Source: a virus
Strand: one strand, 5' to 3'
DNA length: 10,864 bases
UHGV virus genome: UHGV-1747598
Part shown: positions 1,783 to 10,864 of the stretch, in pieces
Position numbering within the stretch: the stretch's first letter is position 1
Layout of the letters: every line of letters starts with the position of its first letter
Notes under the pieces: generated by a model
Seen by the model: only the letters and a program-made list of their open reading frames with translations
What the model was told of the DNA's origin: nothing
Database searches by the model: none
Program-made: the position numbers and the translations under genes

Positions 1783-1812
1783 AAAACCGCTAATGGTCAG
1801 ATTAGCGGTTTT
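1783..1812. terminator. Bidirectional intrinsic terminator hairpin between convergent gpU and invertase genes
   Basis: Perfect inverted repeat AAAACCGCTAAT (1783-1794), loop GGTCAG, ATTAGCGGTTTT (1801-1812), followed by a T-rich tract on + and with the A-run giving a U-run on the - transcript. It lies 8 nt after the gpU stop and overlaps the invertase stop codon (1802-1804). Confidence 0.55.
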
Positions 1813-2401
1813 CATTTTCCTGAGTCTGCCTGGTTGTTTCTTCAGCCTGTATATCGCCTACAGGGTGATAACGATAAATCGTCGATATGCCGATGTCGTA
1901 AATGATCGCCAGTTGTTTCCTGTCATGACCGTTTTTAATCAGCCTCGCTATTTGCTCGTGTTGTTCTTTTGTCAACTTCGGGCGACGTCCGCCAATGCGT
2001 CCTTGTGCGCGTGCTGCTGCCAGCCCGGCCAGTGTACGCTCTACAATTAATTCACGTTCCATTTCGGCTAAAGCCCCCATGACGTGAAAAAAGAAACGCC
2101 CCATGGGTGTTGATGTGTCAATGCTGTCCGTCAGACTACGGAAATTAACACCTTTTTCCCGCAATTCCTCAATAAGCGTGATCAGGTGTTTCATACTTCT
2201 GCCCAGTCTGTCCAGCTTCCAGACAACCAGCGTATCTCCTTCTGATAGCGTTCTGAGCAGTTTTTTCAATCCCGGTCTGGCTGATTTCGTTCCGCTGATT
2301 TTATCTTCAAAAATCAGTTCACATCCTGCGCAGTTCAGTGCATTGCGTTGTAAATCCGTGTTCTGGTCATTTGTTGACACACGAATATAGCCAATTTGCA
2401 T
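1802..2401 (-). CDS. Serine DNA invertase, Hin/Gin/Pin/Cin (Din) family
   Basis: The 199-aa product begins MQIGYIRVSTNDQNTDLQRNAL and contains VVWKLDRLGRS, SLTDSIDTS, GRFFFHVMGALAEMERELIVERT and a C-terminal HTH (GISTIYRY), all hallmark motifs I recall from Hin/Gin. The true start is the ATG at 2401-2399, preceded by AGAGGA; the 264-aa ORF in the track is read-through into the upstream crossover-site region. Confidence 0.9.
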   Translation of the reverse strand: MQIGYIRVSTNDQNTDLQRNALNCAGCELIFEDKISGTKSARPGLKKLLRTLSEGDTLVVWKLDRLGRSMKHLITLIEELREKGVNFRSLTDSIDTSTPMGRFFFHVMGALAEMERELIVERTLAGLAAARAQGRIGGRRPKLTKEQHEQIARLIKNGHDRKQLAIIYDIGISTIYRYHPVGDIQAEETTRQTQENENR

Positions 2402-2455: not shown

Positions 2456-2481
2456 AAGACGAAAACGTTGGTTTGGGGGAA
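2456..2481 (+). other. Invertase crossover site 1 (hix/gix-like, 12-2-12)
   Basis: AAGACGAAAACG-TT-GGTTTGGGGGAA. It resembles the gix/hix architecture (..AAACC-NN-GGTTT..) as I recall it. It lies about 55 bp upstream of the invertase start, at the 5' boundary of cassette A. Confidence 0.6.
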
Positions 2482-2901
2482 GGCTCTGCGCTGCCCGTTG
2501 GTGTGCCCGTTCCATGGCCCTCAGCCACGCTGCCAACGGGGTGGCTGAAATGTAACGGCGCAGCATTTTCTTCTGAAATGTACCCCAATCTGGCAAAGGC
2601 CTACCCCGCCAATAAATTACCGGATTTACGGGGCGAATTTATTCGTGGCTGGGATGATGGACGTGGTGTGGACAATGGGAGAGCATTATTAAGCAGCCAA
2701 GAGGCTACAAATTTTTCTCAGCGTGCCGGAAATATAGGCGATGGTGCGGGCCACGCAATTAATTTTCATGATGGCATAGTCGGAAATCAGCCAGGATTTT
2801 CACGATTTAATTTCACCAGTAACTCTGTAGGCGATGGTATAAATTATGTTGCTGTCAGGCCGCGAAATATCGCATTTAATTACATCGTAAGGGCAGCATG
2901 A
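2470..2901 (+). CDS. Silent alternative tail-fiber C-terminal cassette A (no start codon of its own)
   Basis: The translation GSALPVGVPVPWPSATLPTGWLKCNGAAFSSEMYPNLAKAYPANKLPDLRGEFIRGWDDGRGVD...RPRNIAFNYIVRAA is near-identical at both ends to the C-terminus of the H tail fiber, with a different central block. It begins at crossover site 1 and ends with TGA at 2899-2901. Confidence 0.7.
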   Translation, partial: GLGEGSALPVGVPVPWPSATLPTGWLKCNGAAFSSEMYPNLAKAYPANKLPDLRGEFIRGWDDGRGVDNGRALLSSQEATNFSQRAGNIGDGAGHAINFHDGIVGNQPGFSRFNFTSNSVGDGINYVAVRPRNIAFNYIVRAA

Positions 2902-2920
2902 AAACGTTGGTTTGGGGAAA
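2895..2920 (+). other. Invertase crossover site 2 (hix/gix-like)
   Basis: AGCATGAAAACG-TT-GGTTTGGGGAAA. The stop codon of cassette A (TGA) is embedded in its left half-site. Same orientation as site 1. Confidence 0.6.
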
Positions 2921-3388
2921 GGCTCGGCGCTGCCCGTTGGTGTACCTGTTCCGTGGCCCTCAGCTACTCCACCAACGGGCTGGCTGAAATGCAACGGCGC
3001 AGCATTTTCTTCTGAAAAGTATCCCAAACTGGCACAGGCTTACCCCGCGAACAAATTACCGGATTTACGCGGTGAATTTATCCGTGGCTGGGATGATGGG
3101 CGAGGAATTGATGCAGCACGCGCTTTATTGAGCATTCAAACCGGGATGTTGGAAAAACACCGCCATATTGTTGTAGCTAACGATAGATATGACACAAAGG
3201 ATGAATGGGAGTTGGCCACGATTTTCAAAAAAACATATACACAAGGCAGGGGGCTTGATGCCACAAATACAGGAGGGAGTTTGATTCCATCACCAACGCT
3301 TCATTCACGAGGAAGTATTGGTAACACAGGTGGTAGTGAAACCCGCCCCCGCAATATTGCATTTAACTATATCGTGAGGGCGTCTTAG
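2909..3388 (+). CDS. Silent alternative tail-fiber C-terminal cassette B
   Basis: It has the same conserved 5' block (GSALPVGVPVPWPSATPPTGWLKCNGAAFSSEKYPKLAQAYPANKLPDLRGEFIRGWDDGRGID) and the same 3' motif (RPRNIAFNYIVRAS), with a distinct central region. Stop TAG at 3386-3388. Confidence 0.7.
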   Translation, partial: GLGKGSALPVGVPVPWPSATPPTGWLKCNGAAFSSEKYPKLAQAYPANKLPDLRGEFIRGWDDGRGIDAARALLSIQTGMLEKHRHIVVANDRYDTKDEWELATIFKKTYTQGRGLDATNTGGSLIPSPTLHSRGSIGNTGGSETRPRNIAFNYIVRAS

Positions 3389-3394
3389 TTATAT

Positions 3395-4006
3395 TCAACT
3401 GGCTGCTGCCAGTGGTATTTCCGGCCAGTTGATATCTGGTGCCATGTTTATATCCATTGCGTTCAGTGCGTCTATATAATCCAGCACGGCGTTAAGCCGG
3501 GTGGTTTCTGCCTGCGTCAACTTCCGCCCGGCCTGCAACTTCAACTGAATCAGACTTACGGAAGCCATTGCCGCATCAGCCAGTGACTGGCGCTTGGTTT
3601 CTGCCGCTTCTACTGCGGCACCATGTTGTGCCTCAGTATCTGTCACCCATTTTTCACCATCCCATTTATCGTATGGTGTTAACGGGGCGATAGTGGTTGT
3701 ATTTTTCGGGTAGTCACCCAGCGTCGTGATTTCTTCGGTGTTTCCCGTGTCAGTGTTATAGACGGTTTCACCACGATGGTCTGGCGCATACTCCCATGAA
3801 CTTAAATTCTCCGAACGGCGGATAGCATAGCCCGCTTTATGTGCGCCCGGGGCATCTAAACAGGAATTTGCCGGAATACCGACACCCACAGCAAGATATT
3901 CAGTTGATTCGGAAATATATTCCCGTGTTTCACCATCATAGTTATAAACGACGATGTTTCCTGCCTGTACGGCAATAAGGTCATCATTTAATATCGCGTT
4001 ATTCAT
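3395..4006 (-). CDS. Tail fiber assembly protein (Tfa chaperone)
   Basis: The 203-aa product (MNNAILNDDL...VYNYDGETREYIS...YAPDHRGETVYNTDTG...PYDKWDGEKWVTDTEAQH...) looks like the Tfa proteins encoded next to tail fiber genes in lambdoid, Mu and P2-like phages. Its ATG overlaps the stop of cassette C as TAATG. Confidence 0.8.
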   Translation of the reverse strand: MNNAILNDDLIAVQAGNIVVYNYDGETREYISESTEYLAVGVGIPANSCLDAPGAHKAGYAIRRSENLSSWEYAPDHRGETVYNTDTGNTEEITTLGDYPKNTTTIAPLTPYDKWDGEKWVTDTEAQHGAAVEAAETKRQSLADAAMASVSLIQLKLQAGRKLTQAETTRLNAVLDYIDALNAMDINMAPDINWPEIPLAAAS

Positions 4007-4467
4007 TATGCGGTTCTCACAATATAATTGAAGGCAATATTGCGTGGGCGGCTTTCATTCCCATCTGAGGATTCCGTTCTGTATTGACTGGTAAATCTAC
4101 CGTTAATTGCACCTTGCCAGACGGCGTTATCTGTCGACAACAGACTATCCCCTCCTTTGTCATTTGGCACCAGTACCGTGTTATCCCACGCGTCCCATGA
4201 CCGAATATTATGATAATGACTTCCTGTTAACCACCCCTGCATGCTTAAGATGCCCCTTCTGGCATCCACCCCGCGCCCATCATCCCAGCCACGGATAAAT
4301 TCACCGCGTAAATCCGGTAATTTATTGGTGGGGTAGGCTTTTGCCAGTTTGGGGTACATTTCAGAAGAAAATGCTGCACCGTTACATTTCAGCCAGCCCG
4401 TTGGTGGTGTTGCTGAGGGCCACGGAACGGGCACACCAACGGGCAGTGCAGAACCTTCTCCTAAACC
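4006..4467 (-). CDS. Silent alternative tail-fiber C-terminal cassette C, translationally coupled to tfa
   Basis: Translation NVGLGEGSALPVGVPVPWPSATPPTGWLKCNGAAFSSEMYPKLAKAYPTNKLPDLRGEFIRGWDDGRGVD...RPRNIAFNYIVRTA. It follows the stop of the active cassette and crossover site 3, and has no independent start. Confidence 0.7.
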   Translation of the reverse strand, partial: GLGEGSALPVGVPVPWPSATPPTGWLKCNGAAFSSEMYPKLAKAYPTNKLPDLRGEFIRGWDDGRGVDARRGILSMQGWLTGSHYHNIRSWDAWDNTVLVPNDKGGDSLLSTDNAVWQGAINGRFTSQYRTESSDGNESRPRNIAFNYIVRTA

Positions 4468-4481
4468 AACGTTTTCATGCT
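4456..4481 (-). other. Invertase crossover site 3 (hix/gix-like)
   Basis: On the - strand this reads AGCATGAAAACG-TT-GGTTTAGGAGAA. The stop codon of the active H gene (TGA, 4477-4475) is embedded in its left half. It is inverted relative to sites 1 and 2. Confidence 0.6.
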
Positions 4482-6115
4482 GCCCTTACGATGTAATTAA
4501 ATGCAACGTTGCGAGGGCGAGTTTCTGTACCTACATTTCCACTAATTTTACCAAACCGTTTTACATTACGAGAGCTAATGGCTCGTAGTGAGGAAGGCAC
4601 CTTTAAACCGGGTTCGTCTGTTTTAACTATTCCCCCGTCCCCGTATGTAGCCAGTATTCCAGGGTTTACTCCTTCCCGTGTACTTCCCGCGGCAAGTCCA
4701 TCCCCGGTCCATAATTCCATATAGTGTGCATGATCCAAAATTGTGTGTGGCTGCCAATTAAGCAAAGCGCGGCCAGCATCCACCCCGCGCCCATCATCCC
4801 AGCCGCGAATAAATTCTCCCCGTAAATCCGGTAATTTATTGGCGGGGTAGGCCTTTGCCAGATTGGGGTACATTTCAGAAGAAAATGCTGCTCCGTTACA
4901 TTTCAGCCAGCCCGTTGGTGGTGTGGCTGAGGGCCATGGAACAGGCACACCAACGGGCAGTGCAGAGCCTCCCCCCAAACCAAGGTAATCAAGAACTCCC
5001 TGAGTGCTGGTTTTACCAAGAATGGCACGTCCAACACTTGTCAACGCGGTTAACGCGGCACGATCTGCCCCTGTAAAATATGGGAGTTTATCTGCTGATG
5101 TAGCAAGCTCCGCCAGCGCCGTCAGGGTGGCATCCTTCGGTTGCTTACCCGCAAGCGCGTTAGTCATGGTGGTCGCAAAATTCGGGTCATTGCCCAGCGC
5201 CGCAGCCAGTTCGTTCAGCGTGTTCAGTGCATCAGGTGACGAATCTACAAGTGCGGCAATCGCGGCCATAACGAAAGCCGTGCTTGCGATCTGGGTACTA
5301 TTAGCCCCCTGTGGCGCTGTTGGTGTTGTTGGCGTTCCGGTCAGTGCCGGGCTGTTTAATGGTGCTTTCTTGTTCGTTTCATCCATTACCGCCTTAACAG
5401 CTTTTGGTGTCGCTGCCAGCGTTTCAGACGTGCTGTTCGTGGCGCTACTGAGCTGAACAATCCCTTTTTGTGTAGTGGTGGCGTTCCGGGCGGTATATTT
5501 CCCGTTAGCCAGGTCATATGCAGCCTTAACCGCTTTCGGTGTTGCGGCCAGTGTTTCTGATTCACTGTTAATTGCACTGCTTAACTGAGTAAAACCTTTT
5601 ACGGTCAGCGAGGCGTCCGGGTGACGTCGTGATTGTTCGTGCTCTGATATTTTATCATCCACATATTTGCGGGTTGCCAGAACCACAGACGGGTCGATTT
5701 TCAGCGTGATGGCTTCGGTGTTCGTGACAACCAGAATCATGCGGATAGTCTGGGTGCGTCCACTGCCTTCCTGCAACTGCGGTTTGTACGTTTCCGGGCA
5801 GTTTGCCACCGCAATGAGTACACCTTCATCATCATAAAGACCAATCTCACGGATCCAGAATCCTCCCTCGTTTTCAGGGATGATTTGCTCCGCAATAATC
5901 TGGCTCTGATTGTTAGGGTCAACACTCAGAAGATTCAGCGGTGCAATGCGTTTCTGGTTAATCAGTTTTGTTTGTGCAGGGTCTGGTGTTGGTAACACAC
6001 CATTTGCATCACCAACGGCCATTTGCGTCAGATTCAGCTTACTGCCGAGCATCGTCGCGTTAGCCAGTCGTGCCGCGCCCTGATTAGTCAGAATGGCGTA
6101 GTATTTCACTGTCAT
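4475..6115 (-). CDS. Tail fiber protein H (P2 gpH-like constant N-terminal region fused to the currently active C-terminal cassette D, about 4475-4982)
   Basis: The 546-aa product starts MTVKYYAILTNQGAARLANA...MAVGDANG and contains EHEQSRRHPDASLTVKGFTQLSSA and the twice-repeated SETLAATPKAVKA motif, which match my memory of P2 gpH. The C-terminal 166 aa carry the shared cassette blocks. Its ATG overlaps the gpI stop as ATGA. Confidence 0.85.
   Translation of the reverse strand: MTVKYYAILTNQGAARLANATMLGSKLNLTQMAVGDANGVLPTPDPAQTKLINQKRIAPLNLLSVDPNNQSQIIAEQIIPENEGGFWIREIGLYDDEGVLIAVANCPETYKPQLQEGSGRTQTIRMILVVTNTEAITLKIDPSVVLATRKYVDDKISEHEQSRRHPDASLTVKGFTQLSSAINSESETLAATPKAVKAAYDLANGKYTARNATTTQKGIVQLSSATNSTSETLAATPKAVKAVMDETNKKAPLNSPALTGTPTTPTAPQGANSTQIASTAFVMAAIAALVDSSPDALNTLNELAAALGNDPNFATTMTNALAGKQPKDATLTALAELATSADKLPYFTGADRAALTALTSVGRAILGKTSTQGVLDYLGLGGGSALPVGVPVPWPSATPPTGWLKCNGAAFSSEMYPNLAKAYPANKLPDLRGEFIRGWDDGRGVDAGRALLNWQPHTILDHAHYMELWTGDGLAAGSTREGVNPGILATYGDGGIVKTDEPGLKVPSSLRAISSRNVKRFGKISGNVGTETRPRNVAFNYIVRAA
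4970..4995 (-). other. Invertase crossover site 4 (hix/gix-like), inside the tail fiber gene at the constant/variable junction
   Basis: On the - strand this reads TTCTTGATTACC-TT-GGTTTGGGGGGA, encoding ...LDYLGLGG.... The central TT occupies the same codon positions as in cassette sites 1-3. Confidence 0.6.
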
Positions 6116-6720
6116 GCGTTTACTCTCAGATTATCAATTAAATGAATGGCCGGGGCAGGGAAATAATCCCCTTCGACAATAATGGACTCCGGGGTGTAGG
6201 GATAAACCGTCAGGGCATCGCCGTGATAGCATCCCGTACCAACGAAAATCTTTCCGTTCACACTCAGGCTGATCGCCAGCCCCGTCAGATGGCGACTTAC
6301 TGGTTTTGCATCCGCAATAAGGCGCTCAAGTTCCTGATACATTTCATCGGTGATGCCCTGATCAAGTACTCCGACAACAATGCGAAATGTTCCTGGCTCC
6401 TCGTTGAGTTGCCACCACTCCTTTACTTCAATCAGGTAGCCGAGAGGCTCCACGGCTCTTCGCAGTGCGCTGATGGTCCCTTTGTGTCGGTGTATCAGCC
6501 ATGCATCACGAATCACCTGTCGCTTTGTCTCTTCCGGCCAGTTGCGATCCCAGCGGTCAACGGAAAACGCCCAGGCGAGATAAGGCAGCAGATGCGCCGG
6601 GCATGTGTCCGGCGACCACAGCGTGTTGAGGTCTACCGGAATGTCTGTAATGCGTGTTCCGACGGCTTCGGCGCAACGCATGAAATTGCTGGCTGATGGT
6701 GGTAACAACGAATTACTCAT
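6112..6720 (-). CDS. Baseplate/tail protein I (P2 gpI-like)
   Basis: Product contains WSPDTCPAHLLPYLAWAFSVDRWD, HKGTISALRRAVEPLGY and ADAKPVSRHL, as I recall for gpI. The likely start is the ATG at 6720, which overlaps the gpJ stop (ATGAGTAA), rather than the longer ORF listed from 6753. Confidence 0.8.
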   Translation of the reverse strand: MSNSLLPPSASNFMRCAEAVGTRITDIPVDLNTLWSPDTCPAHLLPYLAWAFSVDRWDRNWPEETKRQVIRDAWLIHRHKGTISALRRAVEPLGYLIEVKEWWQLNEEPGTFRIVVGVLDQGITDEMYQELERLIADAKPVSRHLTGLAISLSVNGKIFVGTGCYHGDALTVYPYTPESIIVEGDYFPAPAIHLIDNLRVNA

Positions 6721-7609
6721 TGCGCCCACCTTCGCTGATGGTGAATGACTCACAGCACGCCGCCTGTATGTCGCTGATGGCCATATTCTGTGTGGGTTCG
6801 ATTATCTCCACGCGTTGCACACCGTGCACATGCAGTGCGGCAGCAATGGCGGACAACGCCACGTCCTGACCGATAAGCCCCTGTTCAGCCAGCCACTTCC
6901 TGAACGACGATTCAGCCGCGGCCAGAATAGGTTCGGATTCCGGGCCGGGGTAAAAGTACAGTTTTGCATTCAGCCGCCATGTCACGATTCTGGCGCTCTG
7001 TACGGTCAGGCGGTCGGCCACCGGGCGGGTATCCTCTGCATTCAGAACGGCGCGAACGGTATTAAGCAACGCCTCCGTTGCTGTGCCGTCGCCTTCAGTG
7101 GACAGAATGGAAACCGTCACACAGGCCGGAGACGGGCTGATGGCCCGCGCATCACGCACCAGACCGCTGGCGCTGCGTGCAAAATACTCGTATGCGCCTG
7201 ACGGGCCAGCAACACTCAGGCCGTCGTACGCCCGCTGCGCCCGCAATCTCAGCGAGGTGTCGCTCTCCATCACCGCGTCGGTGGTATCCGTTGCCGGAGT
7301 GATAACCAGGCGCTTTGTGTTCATATTGCCCGCGAGGTTGTCCAGGTTTGTCCCTGAACCGTGGCTTAACATGCAGGCGCGTGCGCCCTCGTTAACCCGC
7401 TGGCGTAACAGCATTTCACGAAAAGACATGGTTTGAGCGATAACGTTCAGGGGTTCCGATTCCAGCTCCAGCGCGGCGGAGACGGCTTCACGCTGTTCGG
7501 CAGGATAGGACGCAATCATCATGGCCTTTGTGTCAGCCAGAATTGCTTCAAAATCAGGCTCCGCGATGATGGCGGGTTCCGGTAACTGGGAAAGGTCAAC
7601 GGCAGGCAT
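6713..7609 (-). CDS. Baseplate assembly protein J (P2 gpJ-like)
   Basis: 298 aa, the size of gpJ, with its position between the W and I homologs conserved. Confidence 0.8.
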   Translation of the reverse strand: MPAVDLSQLPEPAIIAEPDFEAILADTKAMMIASYPAEQREAVSAALELESEPLNVIAQTMSFREMLLRQRVNEGARACMLSHGSGTNLDNLAGNMNTKRLVITPATDTTDAVMESDTSLRLRAQRAYDGLSVAGPSGAYEYFARSASGLVRDARAISPSPACVTVSILSTEGDGTATEALLNTVRAVLNAEDTRPVADRLTVQSARIVTWRLNAKLYFYPGPESEPILAAAESSFRKWLAEQGLIGQDVALSAIAAALHVHGVQRVEIIEPTQNMAISDIQAACCESFTISEGGRNE

Positions 7610-7612
7610 GAT

Positions 7613-7963
7613 TTACTCCCTCAGCGTGATGGTTAATTCAACATTCTGCATGGTCTGCATGACAGTGCCCGACAGAGTCACCCCGGCGCGGCCTCCTGCC
7701 TTCCAGACAACGTCGATGGCGTCCAGGGCAATGCGGGGTTCCCATCGTGTCAGCGCAATCACGGCAGCACTCATGCATTGCAGACGAGTTGTGTTATTCA
7801 TGGGTTCGTCAATCAAATCAGGCACAAGGCTGCCATATTCCCGTCGCATAACCCGGCTTGCCAGCGGGGTGATCAGGATGTCCCTGACTGACTGTTTCAG
7901 GTGCTCCATATCGTTCAGGTTTCCCGTCCCGTCCGGATTCATTCCTGTGTAGCGGGTTGTCAC
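7613..7963 (-). CDS. Baseplate wedge protein W (GPW/gp25 family)
   Basis: 116 aa with the conserved order V-W-J. Its start overlaps the gpV stop by 4 nt. Confidence 0.8.
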   Translation of the reverse strand: MTTRYTGMNPDGTGNLNDMEHLKQSVRDILITPLASRVMRREYGSLVPDLIDEPMNNTTRLQCMSAAVIALTRWEPRIALDAIDVVWKAGGRAGVTLSGTVMQTMQNVELTITLRE

Positions 7964-8541
7964 TGCGGGCCTCCTGTCGAATCGCTGCCGCCTTTCACGC
8001 CACCGTGTTTATGCGTATGCACTGTGATGCCGTTTGAGGTGAAGTTGCCGCCGCTGTGCGTGATATTGCCGCTCATCTTTCCTCCTTTTGTGACGTCAAG
8101 CGTCGCCGTTCTCAGAAGGTTTGTGCATTCCACGACGGGCGTGTCCAGTTTCACGCTGACGGATGCCTGTAAAGTGGCCGTTTTCATGCCGCTGGCGCTC
8201 AGTGCGCCAGCGTCTGCGTCGTAGCGGAACACCGCGCCGTCCGGCGCGCTGATCACGATTTCTTTCAGGCTTTTGCCGGGGGCCGGACTGGCATCACTCC
8301 ACAGGCTGCCAATTATCATGGCGGTTTCCGGGTTGCCGCCAATGCAGGCAATTACCACCTGTTCGCCTGGTGATGGCGGCAGCCACACATTGAAGGCTCC
8401 CGCGCGCGTGGTGTTCCAGCGCAGCCAGCCTGTTTCCAGTTCGCCGCTGCGAACGCGCACGCGCCAGGACTTCTCATCAACTTCAGAGATGATCCCGGTG
8501 CGGATGATATTGCTCAGCAGTCGCATGAGTTCTGCGCTCAC
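7960..8541 (-). CDS. Baseplate spike/assembly protein V (P2 gpV-like)
   Basis: 193-aa product with an N-terminal OB-fold-like region and a Gly-rich C-terminus (GGKMSGNITHSGGNFTSNGITVHTHKHGG), typical of gpV spikes. Its start overlaps the upstream gene stop by 4 nt. Confidence 0.8.
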   Translation of the reverse strand: MSAELMRLLSNIIRTGIISEVDEKSWRVRVRSGELETGWLRWNTTRAGAFNVWLPPSPGEQVVIACIGGNPETAMIIGSLWSDASPAPGKSLKEIVISAPDGAVFRYDADAGALSASGMKTATLQASVSVKLDTPVVECTNLLRTATLDVTKGGKMSGNITHSGGNFTSNGITVHTHKHGGVKGGSDSTGGPQ

Positions 8542-9656: not shown

Positions 9657-10864
9657 TTATGCTGCGGGATTATTGATTTCCAGCACCAGGCTGCCGATAT
9701 CGACGCCGTACGCGGCATTTTTAGTGATATCAGTTAACGTCAGCGCATTCAGCCCCAGTGTCAGACTGTCTTTTATGACCTGGAATGCCGGGCCAGCCAC
9801 TCCATTCAGTTTCGGAGTAACCGTGGCACTGCCGGCGGTGAACACCAGCTCCAGCGTCTGCCAGTCGTTACTGTAATTCCCGAACTCGCCCAACTTTGTG
9901 TTTCCTGCTTTCTTGTGATGCATCAGATTCAGTTTGCCGTCTGTGGTCTGGGTGAAGAACGACATCAGGAACGGGTTACCAGTCCCGGTCATCGCCACGA
10001 CGTCAGGTAACGCTACATCGGTATACAGATAAATTCCCAGACCGAACTGATTGTTGGTCAGTGCGCCTGACAGTCGAAACTTACAGCTCAGTCTGCCACC
10101 CCGTGTCAGCAGGGAGACTGCGTCATCCACCGGATGCATCAGGGACCAGGTTTTATTGCTCTGCTTGGTAACCTTAAACACACCATCTTCCAGCGCAACA
10201 CTGCCGCCGGTGATGGTCCAGCCCTGCGCAGCAGCCTCTCCGGCTGTCGGCAGCAGGGAGACTGTACGAACGGATGTGTCACCATCAGACGGCCCCGATG
10301 GCGTGTCGCCGCCGGGCGAGGGTTTAATCTCCGGTGCGGTACCGCTGATGAAGGCGCTGGTTCGACCAACTGCGTTCAGAATAGCGGTTGCCAGGCGATC
10401 CGAAATAATGCCCCTGCGCGCCCATGAACTGAAATGTGTCGGACGATTTGACGATACCCAATTACCATTACTACGGGATTGCGCGCCGTAATAACCTGCA
10501 TCAGCAATATCCGGGTCTTCTGCCGGTAAGTTGGTGGGCGTGTTGTTGCCGTTACCGTCGGTCATGAACGGCACAAAGAAAACGTTGTCGCTCTCCCTGT
10601 TTTTGTACGCGCCGTAGACGGAGTCATACTGTGTGCCGTATGTGTTTTTCCAGTAATACGTCGTGTCGCCACAAATCCACGGTACAACTGCAGCACTGCC
10701 GCCATGGCACTGCGCGTTAAATCCGGAAAGGTCAGTACGGAACTGCTTCAGCATGGCCGTGAACAGGTCCGGTTGCTGTGCGTAGGTGGCAGCGCTCATG
10801 TCAAATTCGCCCTGCATCCAGCACACCGCCAGCAACACATTTTTCGGGTTCTTCTGTAATGCAG
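9657..10864 (-). CDS. Partial CDS (N-terminus outside window): C-terminal part of a NanS-like sialate O-acetylesterase domain fused to a beta-rich, lectin-like C-terminal domain
   Basis: The frame is open to the window edge. Motifs CWMQGEFD, PWICGDTTYYWK, PAEDPD and HFSSWARRGIISDR resemble what I recall of E. coli NanS and prophage NanS-p esterases. The C-terminal ~200 aa are Gly/Thr-rich. It ends 23 bp upstream of gpR in the same orientation. Confidence 0.4.
   Translation of the reverse strand, partial: ALQKNPKNVLLAVCWMQGEFDMSAATYAQQPDLFTAMLKQFRTDLSGFNAQCHGGSAAVVPWICGDTTYYWKNTYGTQYDSVYGAYKNRESDNVFFVPFMTDGNGNNTPTNLPAEDPDIADAGYYGAQSRSNGNWVSSNRPTHFSSWARRGIISDRLATAILNAVGRTSAFISGTAPEIKPSPGGDTPSGPSDGDTSVRTVSLLPTAGEAAAQGWTITGGSVALEDGVFKVTKQSNKTWSLMHPVDDAVSLLTRGGRLSCKFRLSGALTNNQFGLGIYLYTDVALPDVVAMTGTGNPFLMSFFTQTTDGKLNLMHHKKAGNTKLGEFGNYSNDWQTLELVFTAGSATVTPKLNGVAGPAFQVIKDSLTLGLNALTLTDITKNAAYGVDIGSLVLEINNPAA

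Follow-up and report, generated by a model that had tools for sequence, protein, structure and literature searches.

A four-site array of the Min type that probably switches tail-fibre tips in a P2-like Escherichia coli prophage

DNA invertases of the Hin/Gin type have an established inversion-only bias, and within their family (Din) two partner sites need an identical core dinucleotide for religation after a 180-degree rotation. Hin, Gin and Cin, the last of which acts on the C segment of P1 and belongs to the same enzyme family, work with a Fis-bound enhancer in a homologous region, normally located in cis in the 5' part of the invertase gene. In the Min system of p15B, on which Sandmeier, Iida and Arber reportedly worked in 1990-1992, multiple inversion among six sites is said to yield 240 isomers. 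On E. coli chromosomes, a P2-like prophage of the enteropathogenic E. coli (EPEC) strain E2348/69 exists as four coexisting variants with three alternative C-termini, as detected by polymerase chain reaction (Goldberg et al. 2014, PMC4272514), and in PacBio data from EC958 about half of the reads across Phi1 carried the tail-fibre segment in the alternative orientation, with alternative-allele contigs also assembled for Phi2 and Phi4 (PMC4134206). In this work, we examine a 10,864-nucleotide stretch of viral DNA from UHGV-1747598 (the window, meaning the whole stretch analysed), which holds a serine invertase gene, one constant tail-fibre gene H, four C-terminal cassettes (A-D) and one tail-fibre assembly gene, tfa. 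With a probability of about 0.92, we read this locus as a Min/Pin-type switch of a P2-like E. coli prophage, one that would alter host range through multiple inversion.

Central to this reading are four crossover sites, all of which show the geometry of the Din family: 26 bp in a 12+2+12 layout, with two imperfect inverted 12-bp half-sites around a 2-bp core. On the + strand, s1 (2456-2481; AAGACGAAAACG TT GGTTTGGGGGAA) joins the fixed invertase-proximal left half to the head of cassette A, and s2 (2895-2920; AGCATGAAAACG TT GGTTTGGGGAAA) joins the tail of A, including its TGA, to the head of B. On the - strand, s3 (4456-4481; AGCATGAAAACG TT GGTTTAGGAGAA) joins the tail of D, including the TGA of the H-D gene, to the head of C, and s4 (4970-4995; TTCTTGATTACC TT GGTTTGGGGGGA) joins the constant left half of H, which encodes VLDYL, to the head of D. 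A degenerate 21-nt consensus matches exactly these four places in the window, even when two mismatches are allowed, and nowhere in 200 dinucleotide-preserving shuffles; the sites read ..AAAC(G/C) TT GGTTT.. and can be aligned with the gix and pix sequences of the Mu and K-12 records. A preliminary description of this DNA had placed four frame-preserving 26-bp sites at these positions, and this holds: translation puts the TT core at positions 2-3 of a CTT or GTT codon, followed by GGT, in all four, such that H fuses in frame to any incoming cassette. Read from one base 5' of the TT, H gives LGLGGGSALPVGVP, and A, B and C give VGLG(E/K)GSALPVGVP. The same description had each site contain the stop codon of the preceding cassette, which is true of the internal sites s2 and s3, where the TGA of A (2899-2901) and that of the H-D fusion (4477-4475) occupy positions 5-7 of the left half-site, but not of s1 and s4, which have no preceding cassette.

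Beside the array, a gene at 1802-2401 (- strand) encodes a 199-residue serine DNA invertase of the Din/Gin-Pin-Min family (Pfam Resolvase, 1.5e-51, and HTH_7, 1.4e-12). Its catalytic residue is Ser9, within MQIGYIRVSTNDQ; the Gin structures 4m6f and 3uj3 of the PDB align to residues 1-185 at an E-value of about 1e-90 with the catalytic serine conserved, and the protein is 71% identical to Mu Gin, 80% to e14 PinE and 93% to the invertase of a P1-like plasmid. It combines an N-terminal catalytic domain bearing the active-site serine, a C-terminal helix-turn-helix and Gin/Pin kinship, as do small serine recombinases of the Din family, and the same intact protein is found in thousands of assemblies. 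These features bear on whether the locus might be a strict shufflon of the R64 type, in which a tyrosine recombinase acts on 19-bp sfx repeats. Both designs share the logic of several overlapping invertible segments that swap C-termini, and Goldberg et al. called the E2348/69 homologue a 'shufflon' (PMC4272514); against this, the only recombinase encoded in the window is a serine resolvase/invertase, with no open reading frame (ORF) for a tyrosine recombinase, and the sites are 26-bp Din-type sequences closely akin to pix and gix. Membership of the R64/Rci shufflons is refuted by the serine invertase and the Din-type 26-mers, and we give it practically no credence.

Across the 2.5-kb array, Pfam recognizes four open frames, each with a phage tail-collar domain, plus tfa. 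Cassette A (2467-2901, + strand, 144 codons, type 0; Collar 2.6e-13) is silent and ends in a TGA at 2899-2901, its conserved head (2468-2667) being followed by a variable body and a conserved tail, ...RPRNIAFNYIVRAA. Cassette B (2906-3388, + strand, 160 codons, type 1; Collar 1.8e-14), likewise silent, ends NYIVRAS-TAG with no site after it. The sole tail-fibre assembly (chaperone) gene of the array, tfa (3395-4006, - strand; Caudo_TAP 2.8e-32), has an ATG that overlaps the stop codon of cassette C, an arrangement of translational coupling; C itself (4006-4470, - strand, 154 codons, type 3; Collar 4.5e-15) ends NYIVRTA-TAA and is silent in the present isomer. Cassette D (4475-4984, - strand, 169 codons, type 2) forms part of an ORF at 4475-6115 and, because it is currently fused in frame to H, is the expressed fibre tip. 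The constant 5' part of H occupies 4985-6115 on the same strand (Phage_tail_fib 1.8e-62, Phage_fiber_2 5.7e-42).

The array can be broken down into two kinds of building block: heads, comprising the right half-site and about 200 conserved nt, and tails, comprising the conserved C-terminal codons, the stop codon and the next left half-site. A and D are head-tail cassettes; B and C face each other around tfa and lack tail sites, making B-tfa-C a single head-head segment; and both fixed ends, the invertase side and H, are of the tail type, with a legal junction always pairing a tail with a head. Any two heads agree at 176-187 of the 200 nt that follow the TT (88-94%), bearing out the homology of 190 bp between cassettes that had been noted before, and identity collapses past about nt 205. 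The last 14 residues, RPRN(I/V)AFNYIVRxx, are conserved once more, and the cassette bodies are just 15-23% identical.

A 42-bp run, GCATTTAATTACATCGTAAGGGCAGCATGAAAACGTTGGTTT, is exact at the A/B junction (2872-2913, + strand; tail of A, TGA, left half of s2, TT and GGTTT) and at the D/C junction (4463-4504, - strand; tail of D, TGA, left half of s3, TT and GGTTT). It cannot be extended on either side, and we estimate that a 42-nt exact repeat would arise by chance in 10.9 kb with a probability of about 1e-17. The preliminary description had reported this run and had seen in it the C-terminal codons, the stop and the next left half-site as one conserved contiguous unit, with which our analysis agrees. 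It had further proposed that cassette pairs were built by duplication of a module; an older modular origin survives from that proposal, but the 42-bp identity is no evidence of a recent duplication in the window. The variable bodies of A and D are unrelated (about 15% identical), and nearly identical tail-plus-site DNA follows at least six unrelated body types in other prophages, the window's own sequence occurring after types 0, 7 and 11. In B and C, whose tails lack a site, different codons specify the same peptide as in the head-tail cassettes. This pattern speaks for common descent or homogenisation of the tail-plus-site DNA, over and above protein constraint. The run reaches exactly 42 bp because the window's D tail allele is atypical: at 4475-4514 it reads ...GTAAGGGCAGCATGA, compared with ...GTAAGAGCCGCATGA in 11 of the 12 other D-type (type-2) cassettes (GGGCAG versus AGAGCC), and with the common allele only about 20 nt would be shared. 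Judging from these alleles, the exact length is a local accident or conversion, with the window's two tail sites homogenised.

Sister loci were gathered through look-ups by exact invertase protein and by exact tfa protein, plus BLAST, yielding 23 related loci; one of these (L021) occupies the same place as another (L002), which leaves 22 other genomes and, with the window included, a set of 24 loci with 99 sites from 23 genomes. TT forms the core of all four window sites and of 99/99 over the 24 loci. All 99 sites keep the frame, and H is fused in frame to seven full-length cassette types. Throughout, the left half-site follows the upstream context and the right half follows the cassette. On the H side, the left half is always TTCTTGATTACC, identical in 22 of 22 H-side sites of sister loci; on the invertase side it is AA(G/A)ACGAAAACG, with the same s1 left half at the invertase-proximal end of sister loci; and behind a cassette tail it is (A/C/G)G(C/T)AT(G/A)(A/G)AAACG, the stop usually being TGA and once TAG. 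The convergent head/tail grammar is obeyed in 24/24 loci, with types 1 (B) and 3 (C) always flanking tfa: type 1 is found in 21/24 loci, always adjoining that gene, and type 3 is fused to H in L002, L015, L017, L023, L037 and L038. Array size ranges from 2 to 8 sites among prophages encoding an identical invertase or an identical tfa protein. AR_0013, which matches 95% of the window at 97.9% identity and is its closest relative, has two sites only, arranged inv>B / tfa<C<H.

Natural rearrangements among these relatives indicate where exchange takes place. Three isomer sets, {L017, L018, L019}, {L015, L016, L023} and {L020, L022}, hold the same cassettes in different order or orientation. Within the sets, the 230 nt after the TT of each cassette contain no variable column in 14 of 15 comparisons and a single one in the other, whatever the left context, and the left context gives way precisely at position -1. 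Left halves are distinguished at -1 (C versus G) and heads from +6 (GGTTT A/G), which confines exchange to the 7 nt TTGGTTT. Two or three kinds of left context precede each of eleven cassette-plus-head haplotypes. In these public genomes, inversions exchange inside the 26-bp site and not across the ~190-bp homology, as the preliminary description had proposed, and the junctions favour, at the level of sequence, site-specific over homologous inversion.

The alternative is that the rearrangements arise from RecA-dependent homologous recombination between the ~200-bp inverted heads, the 26-bp 'sites' being merely conserved coding sequence. Heads of this identity and length are long enough for RecA, patterns of single-nucleotide polymorphisms in the heads are mosaic between loci, and homologous head exchange does occur, as the type-3 cassette of L020 and L022 carries a type-5 head: it equals type 5 over nt 1-200 (with the type-5 base at 12/12 differing positions, the final one lying near nt 137), and beyond about nt 200 it equals type 3 as far as its end. 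However, in all three isomer sets the partner switch lies between -1 and +6 of the site, and the head polymorphisms from +6 onwards always travel with the body. The sole documented homologous event, moreover, fits deletion between direct repeats rather than inversion: compared with L016 (inv>2>7>5>3), L020 and L022 are missing type 5, and the hybrid would represent a crossover between directly repeated heads, consistent with cassette loss. A dedicated Gin/Pin-type invertase also adjoins the array in every locus that was fetched through tfa. We regard homologous inversion as very improbable; rather, cassette gain, loss and homogenisation take place in the heads, and shuffling at the 26-bp sites. 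An older modular origin of the cassettes, with gain and loss by homologous recombination between heads, is supported, because of the L020/L022 type-5/type-3 hybrid and because arrays of 2-8 sites accompany an identical invertase or tfa. In a further locus, L039, the H-fused type-6 head matches the window's A head for about 140 nt, suggesting homologous exchange or conversion among heads.

Under site-specific inversion, the invertase would bind the four sites and synapse any inverted pair (s1 or s2 with s3 or s4), probably assisted by Fis bound to an enhancer in the 5' end of the invertase gene. Staggered 2-nt cuts at the central TT, a 180-degree rotation of one half-site pair and religation would follow, and each product would have the constant H joined in frame to a new C-terminal cassette (..DY-L-GLGxGSALPVGV..). 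The frame would always be kept, since the non-palindromic TT core is common to all sites and in each fills positions 2-3 of a Leu or Val codon. The NYIVRAA-TGA tail of A and D, doubling as the left half of the next site, would make it possible to stack three or more sites. Family knowledge and the relatives suggest that cleavage falls exactly at TT, that the reaction depends on Fis and the enhancer, and that the tips affect host range.

The topology of the window sets its repertoire. With s1 and s2 on the + strand and s3 and s4 on the - strand, the sites are inverted with respect to each other as pairs, and among relatives the breakpoints of the inversion products are bounded to TTGGTTT. Head/tail counting for four sites and three segments gives 3! 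x 2 = 12 isomers and four alternative fibre tips; the general form, (n-1)! x 2, gives 4 isomers at three sites and 240 at six, the same grammar reportedly displayed by p15B Min. At present, H-D is expressed, followed by C and then tfa, and single inversions from this state lead to H>B (s2 x s4), H>A>B (s1 x s4), H>D>B (s2 x s3) or H>D>A>B (s1 x s3). It had been claimed that any exchange at the core would carry H into an incoming cassette, and the frame is indeed always kept, but this overlooked topology: because s3 and s4 are direct repeats and Hin/Gin-type enzymes invert only, C can reach H only via two inversions. The locus shares with Min-type switches more than two sites with overlapping segments, a constant 5' part with several 3' cassettes, and a stop codon overlapping the next site. 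The flanking genes (gpU, gpI, gpJ, gpW, gpV and gpT) are of P2 type, and the locus does not share the P1-like plasmid prophage location of Min.

A candidate recombinational enhancer region can be placed by homology at 2305-2380 (- strand; invertase codons 8-32), ~90-160 bp from s1, where nt 22-96 of the invertase gene, all of it coding DNA, match Mu gin at 58/75 positions, e14 pin at 67/75 and the P1-like plasmid invertase at 71/75 (77-95%).

Several points weigh against a switch that is active in this prophage. The enhancer is assigned solely through that coding-DNA homology, and conservation of codons 8-32 could be explained by coding constraint alone; furthermore, no sigma-70-like promoter was detected for the invertase. 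The right halves of s2 and s4 (GGTTTGGGGAAA and GGTTTGGGGGGA) are private alleles, present in 0/95 other sites and without a match in two public collections, and might make these two sites less active. The members of the isomer sets belong to different strains and not to one culture, which makes each rearrangement an evolutionary reconstruction, albeit one with near-perfect identity, and the activity of the array in this strain is likewise judged from its relatives. Exact-pattern scans gave no matches for the D head (34-nt and 22-nt patterns; metagenome contigs), for the B head (species-representative genomes) or for the tail-plus-site module (species-representative genomes), and contigs encoding the exact window gpJ carry other fibre modules or end inside or before H, providing no usable isomer. 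Since the window's head alleles were not found behind other left contexts, the junction mapping draws on sister prophages and not on window alleles. Among the contigs just mentioned, L027-L033 (short-read or metagenome contigs with identical gpJ) stop within the variable part of H or immediately ahead of it, which fits assembly breaks at the repeated or invertible array.

The private right halves of s2 and s4 would also suit an array that is a frozen relic, with A and D as silent pseudogene fragments and s2 and s4 unused owing to their atypical right halves, and decayed arrays are known in relatives (L003, L005, L006 and L009-L011). On the other hand, all four cassettes of the window remain open over their full length, end NYIVRxx and retain an intact Collar domain; the invertase is intact and identical to the protein in thousands of assemblies, and the positions at which s2 and s4 deviate are outer half-site positions, also variable in the working sites of e14 (GGTTTGGGAGAA) and Mu (GGTTTACAGGAA). 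A relic is unlikely on this evidence, and a multiple-inversion switch remains our preferred reading. In the decayed arrays, an insertion sequence element lies within the array of L005, and frameshifted or truncated cassettes occur in L003, L006 and L009-L011; cassette lengths there are 98, 120, 101, 102, 29 and 16 codons.

The orientation of the central segment also affects tfa, which is convergent to the H operon whenever B faces H and co-transcribed in H>..>C>tfa states. Despite the convergent tfa, H>B is the commonest H fusion among the sampled genomes (6/21, e.g. L014, L016, L018 and L020). The choices are that B tips need no co-transcribed chaperone to assemble, that tfa is read from an unrecognised promoter, or that assembly fails in half of the isomers, which would then be 'off' states. 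It is conceivable, though we consider it doubtful, that the array controls more than tip identity, with segment orientation setting tfa co-transcription and the conserved ends perhaps acting as homology arms. If so, the head and tail-plus-site arms would render cassettes portable plug-in units among P2-like prophages, P1-like plasmids and e14.

Around s1, the frame of cassette A stays open upstream to a TTG at 2416 (2416-2901, a 161-residue ORF) with no in-frame stop, whereas the flank has stops in L009-L011; this open frame is probably due to chance. Five codons ahead of the site, the internal cassettes B and C carry an in-frame TAA. The possibility that the s1 left flank (2402-2467) is a decayed cassette tail was rejected, as local alignment (with the shared GAAAACG removed) scored 12, a value equalled or exceeded by 1437 of 2000 shuffles (mean 12.6). 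The window's sole TGT-N12-ACA dyad, a motif of the P2 Ogr-type activator, is TGTTTCGTGAAAAATACA (2417-2434), placed between s1 and the start codon of the invertase. Its reading as a P2 late promoter transcribing tfa from the invertase side was not supported: one match in the window compares with 2.9 expected by chance, a -10-like hexamer is missing at the required spacing, and a search for sigma-70-like promoters gave none at this place. The dyad may be a coincidence.

In the wider neighbourhood, the 3' part of the tape-measure gene (60-1274) and gpU (1281-1775) run rightward (+ strand), and gpV, gpW, gpJ, gpI and tail-fibre gene H run leftward (- strand, 8541 down to 4475), the two tail blocks being separated by the recombinase gene and the 2.5-kb array. 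The FI-FII-E-T-U block (60-1775) converges on the V-W-J-I-H block (4475-8541) with the invertase at the meeting point, and the same order is present in every relative fetched (e.g. L001 and L004) and in matches to P88/Xuanwuvirus-type phages; in phage P2, the corresponding two blocks are colinear. Between the convergent gpU and invertase genes, a hairpin at 1783-1812 with a 12-bp stem (AAAACCGCTAAT...ATTAGCGGTTTT) and T runs on both flanks looks like a bidirectional terminator insulating the invertase from the tail operon. Towards the other end, an ORF with a DUF6645 domain lies between the lysis genes and gpR (9657-10838, running past the right end); in relatives (L027, L028 and L033) it measures 626 amino acids and also matches SASA (sialate O-acetylesterase-like). 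Missing from other relatives with the same gpJ, it looks like accessory cargo.

Switches of this kind let one temperate phage, or a tailocin derived from one, show several receptor-binding tips, thereby hedging host range, and the stacked tail-plus-site module illustrates how a two-state switch of the G-segment type grows to 4, 12, 240 or more states. Invertible arrays also have practical consequences: they break short-read assemblies, are mis-annotated as many separate 'phage tail protein' genes, and may be assembled as spurious duplicate contigs (PMC4134206). With the head/tail grammar, the expressed fibre tip and the reachable repertoire can be read directly from a genome.

Among described systems, the E2348/69 prophage provides a close chromosomal counterpart. 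Its likely representative in our set, L037, belongs to the same prophage family, with the same gene order, ~94% DNA identity from invertase to tfa and the same three kinds of left half-site as the window. L037 has three sites and one head-tail cassette (type 5), in contrast to the window's four sites and two head-tail cassettes (types 0 and 2), which allow 12 isomers and four tips. Three sites should, by the grammar, give 4 isomers and 3 C-termini, which matches what was found in E2348/69, and the inversions of L037 would span 2.0 and 1.56 kb core-to-core, compared with the published 'around 2,200 and 1,800 bp' (PMC4272514). On architecture and inversion sizes, L037 is very likely the published locus. 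The sites of EC958 Phi2, TCCTCAATTACC TT GGTTTAGGAGAA and GAGAGATAAACG TT GGTTTGGGGGAA, are near-identical to those of the window, and PacBio reads revealed inversion at them (PMC4134206).

On the plasmid side, the P1-like pSX12-6 (L036), taken here to represent the Min systems of p15B and P1-like plasmids, encodes an invertase 93% identical to that of the window, has an identical constant-gene half-site (TTCTTGATTACC TT) and, like the window, carries one tfa inside a central head-head segment. Its backbone and scale differ, as the window is a P2-like chromosomal prophage with four sites, whereas pSX12-6 has ten sites and ten cassettes around tfa. Nine internal sites of pSX12-6 read GGCATAAAAACG TT, with a NYIVRAA-TAA stop in the left half in place of the TGA of the window's internal sites (AGCATGAAAACG), and cassette B, which has lost its tail site in the window, is a head-tail cassette in L036. 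Body types 0, 1, 2, 3, 5 and 10 are common to pSX12-6 and the prophages.

Simpler two-site switches share the enzyme and the site logic. In the Pin/P segment of e14 (E. coli K-12), the invertase is 80% identical, and the pix sites, CTCTCGAAAACC TT GGTTTGGGAGAA and TTTTCATAAACG TT GGTTTGGGAGAA, have the TT core and reading frame of the window, giving ..NLGLGEG in StfP and VGLGEGSALPVGVPVPWP in stfE, which has the same head as the window and whose cassette is of type 11 (0.89 identity). Unlike the window, e14 has two sites only and two tfa genes (tfaP and tfaE), with no head-tail cassettes or stop-in-site modules. Mu Gin (71% identical) likewise acts on 26-bp sites inside a tail-fibre gene of its G segment, and in S its gix site, TTATCCAAAACC TC GGTTTACAGGAA, is translated as ..N-L-G-L.., the core filling codon positions 2-3 of Leu; Mu differs in its TC core, its two sites, its two alternative S-U gene pairs and its lack of stacked cassettes. 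Further afield, Hin and hix of Salmonella flagellar phase variation share recombinase family and site geometry with the window, whose H-side half-site TTCTTGATTACC differs at 2 of 12 positions from the hixL half-site, TTCTTGAAAACC, but Hin inverts a promoter rather than coding cassettes, and hix sites lie in no reading frame. The frame-preserving, stop-in-site architecture of the window is the Min-type design in a P2 backbone, a kind of system already known and not a new one, and it leaves the current understanding of the mechanism unchanged.

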